Program-made: the position numbers and the translations under genes | In this document: positions 3,898 through 8,166 of the stretch, one piece after another | How positions within the stretch are numbered: the first letter of the stretch is position 1 | How the letters are laid out: every line of letters begins with the position of its first letter | Origin: a virus | IMG/VR virus record: IMGVR_UViG_3300037840_000188 | Coordinates: 64,001 to 128,000 of that record | Direction: 5' to 3' (one strand) | DNA length: 64,000 bases | The notes under the pieces: generated by a model | Databases searched by the model: none | Told to the model about the DNA's origin: nothing | The model's input: only the letters and a program-made list of their open reading frames with translations

Positions 3898-4119
3898 CTA
3901 GTACTTCTTCGACATGCCCCTGGACTTCTCGTGTTCCTTGTGCTCTTTCTTCTTCATGCCGATGGACTCGTGCTTGCGCCCTTCCTTCTTGTGCGCCATT
4001 TCCTTCTTCATGCCCATCGATTCGTGCTCTTCGGCTTTCTTCATCGGAGATCTCCTTTTGGATTGCCCGCTGATGTAGCGGCGGGTTGTGGTTTCGATTT
4101 GTGAGAGTTCGTCGGGGAT
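3898..4119 (-). CDS. small Lys/His/Glu-rich protein (ATG at 4044) with in-frame upstream extension resembling the MCP N-terminus
   Basis: MKKAEEHESMGMKKEMAHKK...; RBS AGGAG before 4044; upstream PDELSQIETTTRRYI. Confidence 0.7.
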   Translation of the reverse strand: MPDELSQIETTTRRYISGQSKRRSPMKKAEEHESMGMKKEMAHKKEGRKHESIGMKKKEHKEHEKSRGMSKKY

Positions 4120-4127
4120 ATGCGTGC

Positions 4128-4403
4128 CTATTTGACGCTGCTGTGGCCCTGTGCAGCCTTATTCCCGATAGGTTTGAAACAATCCTCCATGGAAGTCATC
4201 AAGTGCTCTGCCGCGTCTTCCTTGGTGGCGTGGACGGCAGTGTGGGACTCCGAGGGTCCATACTCATCGCCCTCGGCACGATGACGGCTCCGTGAGATCA
4301 CACCGCCCTCAGCAGGTTCGAAGCTTATCTCGACGAGCTTCTTCTTGCCTGTCTTCGGCTTGTGTGCCTGTTCACGGAGAGCGATAGCTGAGGTCTTGGC
4401 CAT
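4128..4403 (-). CDS. hypothetical head-operon protein
   Basis: ORF track, operon context. Confidence 0.7.
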   Translation of the reverse strand: MAKTSAIALREQAHKPKTGKKKLVEISFEPAEGGVISRSRHRAEGDEYGPSESHTAVHATKEDAAEHLMTSMEDCFKPIGNKAAQGHSSVK

Positions 4404-4412
4404 TATCTGTGC

Positions 4413-4682
4413 CTAGCCCTCGTGTGCCCAGACCATGATCACTTCGTTGACCATTGGAGCGGACGAGGTGAAGGTAATCACGCCGGTAACCGCATTGACG
4501 GTCATGCCAGTGATGAGCGAAGCGGTCCCAGCCTGGCAAAAGGACTGTACGTCCGCCCAGAGGATGCCGATCATATTCGTGTTCAGCGTCGAGCCGGTGG
4601 GTCCATTAACCACAAAGATACGGCTGATGTAGTTGCCTTGCAGGCGCTGGTTCGTGGGTGTACCGAAGGTTACCTGAGCCAT
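4413..4682 (-). CDS. putative small virion protein
   Basis: RBS AAGGAG, beta-rich, follows cement gene. Confidence 0.7.
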   Translation of the reverse strand: MAQVTFGTPTNQRLQGNYISRIFVVNGPTGSTLNTNMIGILWADVQSFCQAGTASLITGMTVNAVTGVITFTSSAPMVNEVIMVWAHEG

Positions 4683-4707
4683 GAATTCTCCTTAAGTCCT
4701 GCGCCGG

Positions 4708-5301
4708 TTAGTCAACGAAGCCGATGTTGACGTCGACCGGGGTGGTGTTTCCAGCGCTCAGTACGGAAGATGCGCAGATACCGATCACCTGGCTCACCGG
4801 AGCGGTCGTAACTGTCGCCTGGCTGATACCGCGCGCCACGCTTGCCGTGGTGTCCGCAATGAAGGCGGTTCCCTGGAGAATGGTTCCAGTGGCGGCAACA
4901 GGATACGCGCGCTTCTGGATGACAAGATCCGTGTAATACGTCACCGGGTTACCTGTCGCGTCATTCACGCCAGGAGCGGTGGATACCGCGAGTTGGAAAA
5001 TACCGGCCACACGATTGATCGCGCCAGACGGGCCGACATCGCATTGGTTCTTGTCGTTGGTGACAAGGGCATTAGCCTGATCCTTCCAGAATGCGAGCTG
5101 GCCAGCAGCTACCGCACCGACCGCAGTCGCCGACGTAGCGCCAGAATCGAGACGGACGCGGAGGTAAGAGCCGCCCGTCGTCTGGTCGTTGAAGGCGCAG
5201 CCGATTTCGCCATTCGCGTATGCCGGAGTCGGAGCATTGGTCTTATCCGGGGTGCCCTGTGGCATATATGGGTTCGGAATCCGTGGATATACTTGAGCCA
5301 T
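4708..5301 (-). CDS. putative capsid cement/decoration protein
   Basis: Directly downstream of MCP, A/G/T/V rich, RBS AAGGAG. Confidence 0.65.
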   Translation of the reverse strand: MAQVYPRIPNPYMPQGTPDKTNAPTPAYANGEIGCAFNDQTTGGSYLRVRLDSGATSATAVGAVAAGQLAFWKDQANALVTNDKNQCDVGPSGAINRVAGIFQLAVSTAPGVNDATGNPVTYYTDLVIQKRAYPVAATGTILQGTAFIADTTASVARGISQATVTTAPVSQVIGICASSVLSAGNTTPVDVNIGFVD

Positions 5302-5347
5302 AAAGACTTAACTCTCCTTGTCGTTCTGAAATTCTGGTACTAAAGTA

Positions 5348-6454
5348 CTACGCCACAAATCCGAACCCGGACGCATGATATCCCGGTAAGACCGATAAAT
5401 TGTGCGCTAGCAACACTTTACCGACTATTTTGGTGTTTCCAGCGCTGGGGATAAACCCATCATCATCCAGCGTCCCGTTGAACGGCGCATTCTTCGAAAT
5501 GCGGTACTTGATGTTCGGCTTGCGGGCGTTCAGGAACCAGATCGATTCGCCGCCCTGAAGGTTGCCGGACGGATACGCGGTCACCGCGCCGCCAGTGGTG
5601 TAAGACAGGTACCTGGTCGCCACGCGGTCGTTGGTGCCGCCGCTGGCTGTCAGGTAGGAGCCGGGAGCGTAACGAGAAGCCAGGATCACCGCACCGTTGT
5701 ATTCGAGGCCACGGAAACCGCCCTTGGCGATAGTGACGTTCTGGAAGCGCTGCTGAGTCTGATAGTTCGAACGAATGTAGCCCTGACCCTTGGCAGTTGT
5801 CAGGATGATGTTGGGCTCGTACTCGCCAGAACCATAGTTGACCGACTGGTACATGTTCTCCATCACCGGGAGGGTGATGTTCGCACCGGCGAAGTTGACG
5901 GGCGCGGGAGCCAGCATACGGCCACCATACAGCGAGCGAGTCAGGGTGCCATAGATCGGATAGGCCGAACCGTCCCAGCCGGGCGTCACGCCGTCAGAGA
6001 GGGCTTCATCGAGGCCGTTGATGACCTTGACATACGCGCCAGTCTGGCCCTGGAGATAGAGCTGGAGTGCGGTCTGCGCGCCGAGTTGCATGTAGGCGGA
6101 GTCCACGCGCTCTTCGACGAGCTTGATTACCGCGAGCGGCCCGTTGTTCAGCACCTTGATGTCTTCCTTGTAGAAGGGGATCATCACGGTCTGGTACTTC
6201 GGATCGAAGCGCAACTGCTGCTCGATCTGGCGCTGGTCGGCAGGCAGATCCTGACCCTTCGAGTACGAACCGCCATCCTGGACGTCATACTCGATGTTGT
6301 CGTTCCACGAAGAGCCGCCCTCGACCTCATCGAGACAGTTCTCGTCGAGGAAGGACATGAGCGGATCTTTATTGAATACGAGATCACGGAGCTTTGGCTG
6401 TTCGTCGATGTAGCGGCGAGTCGTGACTTCGATTTGCGAAAGAGTGTCAGGCGT
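5348..6454 (-). CDS. major capsid protein (probable ACG start at 6454; first ATG at 6358)
   Basis: Follows scaffold; ~368 aa; open frame extends 32 codons upstream of the ATG as (M)PDTLSQIEVTTRRYIDEQPKLRDLVFNKDPL. Confidence 0.8.
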   Translation of the reverse strand, partial: TPDTLSQIEVTTRRYIDEQPKLRDLVFNKDPLMSFLDENCLDEVEGGSSWNDNIEYDVQDGGSYSKGQDLPADQRQIEQQLRFDPKYQTVMIPFYKEDIKVLNNGPLAVIKLVEERVDSAYMQLGAQTALQLYLQGQTGAYVKVINGLDEALSDGVTPGWDGSAYPIYGTLTRSLYGGRMLAPAPVNFAGANITLPVMENMYQSVNYGSGEYEPNIILTTAKGQGYIRSNYQTQQRFQNVTIAKGGFRGLEYNGAVILASRYAPGSYLTASGGTNDRVATRYLSYTTGGAVTAYPSGNLQGGESIWFLNARKPNIKYRISKNAPFNGTLDDDGFIPSAGNTKIVGKVLLAHNLSVLPGYHASGFGFVA

Positions 6455-6486
6455 ATAGGTACCCTACCTTTGCTAGCTTAAATTCG

Positions 6487-7419
6487 TTACTGAACCGACT
6501 GAAACGCATCCAACAGCTTCGACCGGTCGTAAACTTTCTTGTCGCCACCGATTCCATCGCGTGACAGCGGCGATGGTGTACCGGCTCCAGTCGACGACGA
6601 CGCGCCCTCGGCACCTGCCGGGAAATTCGACTGCAACATCCGCTTCTTCATCCGCTCATTAACCTGGTCTTCGATGCGCTTTTCATCGGCGGCCAGCCGT
6701 GCGGCTTCAGCAGTCTTCTGGTCTTCGAGCACATTTGGCGCATCCCACTCTTCGTAGGCCTTGACCACGTCGCCCGCGATCTCTGGCTTTGCGGCCAGTT
6801 CGTCGAGCTTCTTCCAGTCGATGGGAGTCTTTTTGCCACGCGCGATATTGCGCATGATGTTCATCTCGACCGCAGTTCCGACTCCAATAAGAGTGCCCGT
6901 CACCTTCGGCGCGTAGACATTCTTATATGCCTCTTCGACACTCTCCTTCGCAGCGCCAGTACTGATTTCTTTGGCGATTGCCTGGACTTCTTCCTTGGTC
7001 AGGCCGGGGATCGAACTCGGGAGAGCAGGCGGGGTGGTGGTTGCGCCAATCTTCCCGTACTTGGCCTCATACTCCTTGACAGAAGCTTCAAGCGCCTTAC
7101 TGGAATCTTCGAGTTCTTTCAACTTGTTTGCGTTCCCGGTGATCGTCGCGTAGTTCTCGGCGTACCATTGCTGGTACTTGCGGCTGCCGGGCTTCGCATC
7201 GGTACCGATCAGTTCGGCTTCGAGTGTGGCCTTCGCGGCTTCGATCTGCTGCTTCTCGGCGAGCAGAGCATTAGCACGCTGCTCGATAGCCTGATACTCG
7301 GTGGCTTGGCGAAGTTGAGTTACCTTAGCCATCGTACTTGCGTTGCCAGTGAGCTTGGCGACCTCTTCGGTCGTCAACCCGCCTTCAATCAAAAGAGCCT
7401 GGAATTCTTGTGCGGTCAT
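6487..7419 (-). CDS. putative scaffolding protein
   Basis: Coiled-coil, charged, low-complexity C-terminus, immediately upstream of MCP. Confidence 0.7.
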   Translation of the reverse strand: MTAQEFQALLIEGGLTTEEVAKLTGNASTMAKVTQLRQATEYQAIEQRANALLAEKQQIEAAKATLEAELIGTDAKPGSRKYQQWYAENYATITGNANKLKELEDSSKALEASVKEYEAKYGKIGATTTPPALPSSIPGLTKEEVQAIAKEISTGAAKESVEEAYKNVYAPKVTGTLIGVGTAVEMNIMRNIARGKKTPIDWKKLDELAAKPEIAGDVVKAYEEWDAPNVLEDQKTAEAARLAADEKRIEDQVNERMKKRMLQSNFPAGAEGASSSTGAGTPSPLSRDGIGGDKKVYDRSKLLDAFQSVQ

Positions 7420-7801: not shown

Positions 7802-7969
7802 TCAACGTATCCCCGCCTTATTTGCATCGCATGCGGGCGACGCGATTTCCTTGCCCATTGATTTTTGGCGACCGACCTTCGCGGAGAACCCGGTTTCCTT
7901 CTTCGTGAGTCCGACACCCCGGCTGGAGCCGCGCTTCTTACTGCCCATTGATTCGTGTTCGCGCTTCAT
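7802..7969 (-). CDS. small basic protein (not in ORF track)
   Basis: MKREHESMGSKKRGSSRGVG...; shares HESMG motif with the 3898 protein; ATGA overlap. Confidence 0.55.
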   Translation of the reverse strand: MKREHESMGSKKRGSSRGVGLTKKETGFSAKVGRQKSMGKEIASPACDANKAGIR

Positions 7970-8166
7970 TTGGCTATAGCCCCTTTACCCCTGAGCTTCG
8001 ACAATGTCTCCGCAAGGCGGGACTGTTTGCCGAGTTTTCCCGGCGATCCGGCGTTCTTCGCGGCAAATGACTGTGTGCCCATCCCGGCCTTCTTGGCTTT
8101 GGCTCCGAAAGCGCCCTTGTTGAGATTGGCGTGTTCTATCCAATCAGGGTCTGGGTTTGTGGGCAT
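7966..8166 (-). CDS. small basic phage protein
   Basis: WI..A..KGAF.AKAKKAG...GKLGKQSRLAETL.KL. Confidence 0.7.
   Translation of the reverse strand: MPTNPDPDWIEHANLNKGAFGAKAKKAGMGTQSFAAKNAGSPGKLGKQSRLAETLSKLRGKGAIAK

Follow-up and report, generated by a model that had tools for sequence, protein, structure and literature searches.

The segment from 3898 to 4119 on the (-) strand of the window (the whole stretch of DNA analyzed, 64,000 nucleotides of a 141-kb record) constitutes a single small late gene, carried by an uncultured soil phage, and encodes a chimeric protein of ∼73 residues. Its N-terminal part is a helix copied from the N-terminal arm (N-arm) of the major capsid protein; a linker of four residues joins this helix to a tail that is disordered, strongly basic, and rich in Lys, His, Glu, and Met. 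The codon-level data show that the copied segment is a coding sequence under purifying selection. Two products are likely to be made from the gene, a scarce long form starting at ATC 4119 (GTG in relatives) and an abundant short form of 48 residues starting at ATG 4044. We tentatively propose that, in this two-product chimera, the N-arm copy serves as an address label for the capsid interior, a proposal that we rate somewhat short of an even chance. The features concerned are collected in Table 1.

Table 1. Features of the small gene and its surroundings (window positions)
Feature	Positions	Strand	Remarks
48-aa Lys/His/Glu/Met-rich tail ORF (short form)	3898..4044	(-)	pI 9.8; His-Glu-Ser-x-Gly-Met-Lys-Lys repeats; predicted disordered
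Linker Arg-Arg-Ser-Pro, four codons	4045..4056	(-)	Ribosome site AAGGAGA of the internal ATG is built from AGG AGA
N-arm copy, 20 codons	4057..4116	(-)	15/20 residues identical to capsid N-arm (6451-6392); predicted helix
ATC at the long-form start position	4117..4119	(-)	Aligns with GTG of four lineages and with the capsid ACG/ATG start
91-aa ORF just upstream of the copy	4128..4403	(-)	Lys/Met-rich tail at the end of its homologues in two distant relatives
Major capsid protein gene, 368 codons, HK97 fold	5348..6454	(-)	ACG start 6454-6452; donor N-arm 6392-6451
Helical protein of 310 aa, encoded immediately upstream of the capsid gene	6487..7419	(-)	Presumed scaffolding protein; conserved C-terminal segment

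A preliminary description of this DNA had set a 20-residue peptide of the small gene (4116-4057(-)) beside the N terminus of the capsid protein (6451-6392). Both peptides were found at the coordinates claimed, with 15 of their 20 residues in common, and the seven pairs of synonymous codons listed there were all present (CCC/CCT, CTC/CTT, TCA/TCG, ACA/ACG, ACC/ACT, CAA/CAG, and AAA/AAG). The copy was also confirmed to be in frame with the 48-residue ORF at 3898-4044(-), and from the upstream in-frame TAA to the peptide there is no ATG, GTG, or TTG, while ATC (4119-4117) and ACG (4125-4123) are present. In alignment, the DNA of the copy and that of the capsid block are ∼75% identical, and the duplication reaches ∼12 nt into the leader ahead of the start position. 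When the 21-residue peptide was compared with the whole 141-kb record, matches were found in two places only, the copy and the capsid N terminus, the second with E = 1.9e-5; the likeness is therefore beyond chance. It stops abruptly past Lys21 in both proteins. Residues 2 to 21 alone of the small protein match, the other 52 forming the disordered basic tail, and the P and A domains of the HK97 fold are lacking; the small protein is not a capsid paralogue. The AF2 model of the fusion, which is of low confidence, has a helix at residues 4 to 17 and a tail without structure, and this helix agrees with the N-arm helix at residues 4 to 18 of the capsid model.

The inclusion of the leader in the duplication would suit a shared nucleic acid element, such as a promoter, a leader, or an RNA-binding site, in place of a shared peptide. 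The differences between the two copies, however, fall at third codon positions, which indicates constraint at the protein level, and the RNA folding of the region was ordinary, being no better than that of shuffled sequence (z = +0.54). The pattern across codon positions largely refutes this alternative, to which we give next to no credence. An RNA element in particular was rejected, as the folding did not exceed that of the shuffles and the substitutions were codon-phased.

The donor sequence was identified with the aid of capsid homologues. ORF calling places the capsid start only at the internal ATG 6358. The extended frame is covered by 281 database homologues, almost all of them starting with Met-Pro-Asp and the same peptide and having ∼368 residues. 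Since they start with Met-Pro-Asp where the window has ACG (6454-6452), 6451-6392 is the true capsid N terminus. With distant annotated relatives (the Tunturiibacter phages Tunturi_1 and Tunturi_2 and the Myxococcus phage Mx9), the alignment likewise starts at this N-terminal motif. The capsid protein matches phrog_9953, a major head protein, and its AF2 model (pLDDT 74, pTM 0.77) shows an HK97 fold with the N-arm (helix at residues 4 to 18), the spine helix, and the P and A domains. The top Foldseek matches of this model were phage capsids and encapsulins, with a probability of 1.00.

The capsid ACG is preceded by a ribosome site, GGTAGGG, and an independent soil metagenome run (X2) is identical to the window over 4246-6520, this ACG included; the X2 contigs end before the copy. 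In related contigs the start codon at the capsid position is ATG in most, GTG in three, ACG in L012/L013 and in L017, CTG in L020, and ATT in L021, and the two lineages with ACG are mutually distant. The non-ATG starts of L012, L017, and L020 (each at 5998-6000) and of L021 (5207-5209) all have a normal ribosome site upstream, and the lineages with ACG have the leader GGGTAYYTAT in common. A phage tRNA that reads ACG or AUC as an initiator was considered and rejected, since aragorn found 23 tRNAs in the 141-kb record, two with a CAU anticodon and none with CGU or GAU. The record is about twice as long as most related contigs (61 to 64 kb) and contains one capsid gene only along with its 23 tRNA genes; the region tied to this observation, record positions G000:C1 52678-62037, lies before the window.

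Orthologues of the small gene were found by a protein search with the 73-residue reading, followed by contig retrieval, with one JGI contig in addition. The same N-arm was in frame with the same tail in four other lineages, represented by six short soil metagenome contigs (L026, L027 to L029, L030, and L032). The search returned a 75-residue protein with a canonical start that carries N-arm, linker, and tail, as well as entries of 48 to 49 residues that begin at the internal ATG. All four lineages have GTG where the window has ATC 4119, and a 3-nt insertion in the linker of L027 to L029 keeps the frame. The 3.4-kb contig L032 contains both the fusion and a normal capsid gene, 98% identical to that of the window, and has a different gene between the 92-residue ORF and the fusion. 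Because the upstream neighbor of the fusion is a different gene in L026, L030, and L032, the N-arm travels with the tail and not with that neighbor. Synthesis of the N-arm by frameshift or readthrough from the upstream gene was rejected, as the frame relation varies, being -1 in the window and L027 and in frame after a TGA in L026 and L032.

The preliminary description had expected relatives to keep the second copy free of stops and frameshifts, and this held in part. The N-arm in frame with the tail was present in the four further lineages, with a frame-preserving indel and under purifying selection, whereas most relatives are without the gene and one contig has a stop within the N-arm. This contig, L028 (∼76-84), is a variant of the L027 lineage in which CAG has become TAG at N-arm codon 7 while the 48-residue ORF is intact. 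A stop at this point would prevent synthesis of the long form, which can therefore be lost, unless the stop is an assembly error.

Among the orthologues, pN/pS (Nei-Gojobori) was 0.06 to 0.36 for the N-arm and 0.11 to 0.47 for the tail; purifying selection on the N-arm is equal to that on the tail. Between the window and L027 there are 10 synonymous and 2 nonsynonymous differences (Fisher p = 7.5e-7). The earlier claim of selection on the protein encoded by the copy was thus borne out, both by these ratios and by the codon-phased differences. When any copy was compared with any capsid gene, pS ranged from 0.68 to above 0.9, near or at saturation, and pN from 0.13 to 0.19. The copies have Gly-Gln-Ser-Lys in common where capsids have Glu-Gln-Pro-Lys. 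Given the near saturation of synonymous sites and these shared residues, it appears that one old duplication was followed by independent purifying selection; the same two features point away from recent gene conversion and from a decaying relic.

A relic of recombination was nevertheless weighed, in which a capsid 5′ fragment was left in a recombination-prone slot by illegitimate recombination, or was captured as a translation start, and the 48-residue ORF is the sole functional product. Relatives vary strongly in the region that separates the head genes from the 421-residue gene, and in L032 the next gene, a homologue of the 83-residue ORF, is likewise partly duplicated at its 5′ end. The lack of a canonical start in the window, the stop in L028, and the strong ribosome site on the short ORF would fit as well. 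Such a relic is, however, very unlikely in view of the frame kept through the indel, the GTG starts in four lineages, and a pN/pS of 0.06 to 0.36 in spite of near-saturated synonymous divergence.

Selection shows that the peptide matters, not why, and the capsid-derived helix could also have been kept as a useful N-terminal helix for the tail, unrelated to capsid assembly, with a role in stability, in oligomerization, or in binding DNA, membrane, or metal. Asp17, nearly invariant in capsids, varies in the copy, and the repeated His and Met motifs of the tail could by themselves bind metals or nucleic acid, both of which would agree with such an exaptation. On the other side, the capsid-invariant residues Pro2, Asp3, Thr12, Arg13, and Arg14 and the nearly invariant Tyr15 and Ile16 are all invariant in the copy, so that almost all of the constrained N-arm residues have stayed fixed in spite of synonymous saturation. 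Because residues suited to the original partner were kept in this way, an exaptation is less expected, and we give it a real but minor chance.

The position and surroundings of the start codons provided an indication of how the two products would be made. ATC 4119, which was read from one run only (the probable source run), lies 8 nt past the TAG stop of the upstream 91-residue ORF and has a weak ribosome site. The GTG starts of the relatives are likewise without good ribosome sites and lie 2 to 15 nt past the upstream stop. Since the start follows closely on the upstream stop and the ribosome site is weak, reinitiation through coupling is the likely route to the long form. In Escherichia coli, AUC initiates at ∼1 to 2% of the level of AUG, and most other codons, ACG included, at 0.1 to 1% (10.1101/063800). 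With its ATC start and weak ribosome site, the long form may be very scarce in this window.

The internal ATG 4044, by comparison, has AAGGAGA 7 nt upstream, made of an AGG and an AGA codon. Because these two codons are rare, accounting for 6 of the 62 Arg codons in neighboring genes, the ribosome site itself appears to be selected. The internal ATG and a sequence resembling a ribosome site (AGG-AGA or AGG-GGA) are kept in all lineages, and this conservation makes the earlier suggestion of two isoforms plausible. The further suggestion that gene callers miss the long form applies to the window, for which the 48-residue P0122 is the only entry on record, but not where the start is GTG and the 75-residue P0121 was called. 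The ribosome site had also been placed inside a palindrome, GGAGATCTCC. This palindrome does lie at 4055-4046 and holds GGAG 7 nt before ATG 4044, but it is absent from all relatives. As it is not conserved and the RNA folding is ordinary, it carries no weight.

With regard to function, the N-arm of a capsid protein normally contributes to a docking site on that protein. In the procapsid of phage 80alpha, the N-arm helix of the capsid protein is bound by the C-terminal helix of the scaffold (PMC5644958). It is because scaffold C termini are known to bind capsid N-arm helices that the copy may be read as an encapsidation tag. In the window, the 310-residue protein encoded directly upstream of the capsid gene is presumed, from its position and conservation, to be the scaffolding protein. 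During assembly, the copied helix would occupy the docking position of the capsid N-arm helix, its likeliest partner being the C-terminal segment of this scaffold at the inner procapsid face. The basic tail would thereby be brought into the head, with the N-arm copy acting as the address label. In this scheme, the identity of the binding partner, the entry into the head, and any function of the tail are inferred. Docking of scaffold residues 170 to 310 with the fusion, run as a single job, gave a score of 0.00 and no verdict either way. In its more specific form, with the N-arm of the phage's own capsid protein used as a portable cargo tag that binds the scaffold or the inner shell, and with tagged long and untagged short forms possibly co-assembling, the proposal is possible, although we lean against it.

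Only for a small number of model phages is the route of accessory proteins into the head understood, and a copied N-arm on an unrelated small protein makes the question testable with one peptide, the scaffold, and the shell protein. If the peptide binds, the N-arm partner in this soil phage family would be identified and a minimal loading tag obtained. The address label, if real, would be the first natural one for the capsid interior to be derived from the capsid protein itself, and would offer a ready-made tag of 20 residues for loading HK97-fold particles. Even with another function, the gene would indicate that short N-terminal extensions on noncanonical starts, which are missed by gene callers, can be under strong selection.

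The small gene was compared with known systems for addressing proteins to capsids. The internal proteins of phage T4 carry a short N-terminal capsid targeting sequence (CTS) that loads highly variable, often basic small proteins into the prohead core, and foreign proteins fused to the CTS are encapsidated (PMC3012670). The soil phage gene resembles this system in that a small accessory protein bears a short peptide at its N terminus, with packaging proposed here by analogy. The T4 CTS differs in that it is not copied from the capsid N terminus and is common to several internal proteins; in the 141-kb record the peptide occurs twice, once in the capsid protein and once in a single accessory gene. 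A prohead protease removes the CTS in T4. When the 141-kb record was searched for the HK97-type (S78) and S49 prohead protease families, neither was found.

This search also bears on the possibility that the 20 shared residues are a processing signal, either a propeptide or a site at which both proteins are recognized by the same protease or modifying enzyme. Shared N-terminal leaders that are cut off by a protease are known in other phages, and the sharp end of the likeness past Lys21 would fit such a signal. Apart from the two missing protease families, the conservation of the N-arm as a helix across the capsid family, out to Mx9 and the Tunturi phages, fits a structural role and argues against processing, which we hold to be highly improbable. 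Together with the nucleic acid element, it has the least support among the alternatives considered.

A second comparison is with CpmB of SaPI1, likewise a small accessory protein with a terminal peptide that duplicates that of an essential assembly protein. A C-terminal helix-and-hook is shared by CpmB and the scaffold of 80alpha, so that CpmB uses the same capsid-scaffold interface, in which the capsid N-arm helix takes part (PMC5644958). Unlike the gene described here, which is phage encoded and copies the capsid N-arm, CpmB is satellite encoded, copies the ligand end of the scaffold, and resizes the capsid. CpmB competes with the 80alpha scaffold for the capsid N-arm (PMC5644958), and this precedent of a terminal peptide shared by an accessory protein and an essential assembly protein would suit a different function, in which the long form would not be cargo but a modulator or decoy that competes with the capsid protein for the scaffold C terminus or for the docking groove of the N-arm. 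It would then tune scaffold release or capsid size, or hinder the assembly of competing related phages. This alternative rests on the same sequence evidence as the address label, and it would suit an accessory gene in a hypervariable slot, where interference genes are often found. The gene, however, is flanked by head and tail genes on the late strand of the phage itself, a satellite context is absent, and the tail is disordered and basic, without an obvious size-determining architecture. The chance of a modulator or decoy is accordingly put as slim.

Returning to the proposed address label, a short terminal peptide directed to the inner face of an HK97-fold shell would also resemble the cargo-loading peptides of encapsulins, which are Foldseek neighbors of the capsid model. 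Encapsulin cargo peptides differ in being usually C-terminal and not derived from the shell, and they bind a pocket that includes the shell N-terminal helix. T4 gp24 and Ccm of SaPIbov5 are further cases of duplicated capsid gene sequence that takes part in or redirects assembly (PMC8569155). They are full-length HK97-fold paralogues that enter the lattice, whereas the small gene has the first 20 residues only. With these likenesses and differences, the gene would join the known capsid-addressing peptides as a plausible variant, and a function as an encapsidation tag is plausible.

The origin of the tail may lie in the gene just upstream. In L014, the homologue of the 91-residue ORF resembles the tail, with 59% identity over 32 residues, and for L012 a likeness was seen in the alignment only. 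These traces hint that the gene may be a chimera of a capsid 5′ fragment and the Lys/Met-rich tail of the 91-residue ORF family. Tails of the Gly-Met-Lys-Lys type are present on the homologues in L014 (8641-8961) and L012 (8275-8544), and the window keeps a degenerate version at 4128-4403. Searches of Pfam and PHROGs gave no match for the small protein, for its neighbors of 91, 89, 83, and 197 residues, or for the scaffold-like protein, and the ESM Atlas returned only subthreshold leads. Upstream of the scaffold gene, a 55-residue ORF (7802-7969(-)) starts with Glu-His-Glu-Ser-Met-Gly, like the repeats of the tail (pairwise BLASTP, E = 6e-4), and may be a paralogue or a chance low-complexity match. 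A basic family of 62 to 80 residues, with a C terminus of the Gly-Lys-Leu-Gly-Lys-Arg-Ala-Arg-Leu-Ala-Glu type and no Pfam match, was seen to change place within the head module; its members are at 7966-8166(-) in the window, 2805-3047 in L032, 8450-8644 in L014, and 8083-8271 in L012.

The small gene is accessory and rare, being confined to a few soil phage lineages. A second N-arm copy was not found on 24 related IMG/VR contigs, in 18 of which the peptide motif was sought over 1.5 to 6 kb beyond the capsid gene. A degenerate DNA pattern of the N-arm matched eight IMG/VR contigs, one of them new, once each and none twice, and an IMG/VR scan with the fusion alignment gave no further locus. A metagenome scan added one locus, L032. 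In a profile search of 1.84 billion representatives with the fusion alignment, one real relative of 49 residues and one spurious repeat protein were obtained, and in the wider databases the gene was not found beyond the six short contigs. GTDB genomes scanned with the capsid alignment gave no match and hence no clue to the host. Because most relatives are without it, this group of phages does not depend on the gene for assembly. The content of the slot that separates the head genes from the 421-residue gene varies from one contig to the next. At 3290-3423 of L032, the first ∼9 codons of the homologue of the 83-residue ORF occur twice in tandem, the first copy ending in a stop. This being a second case beside the N-arm copy, it appears that short duplications of 5′ ends arise in this slot.
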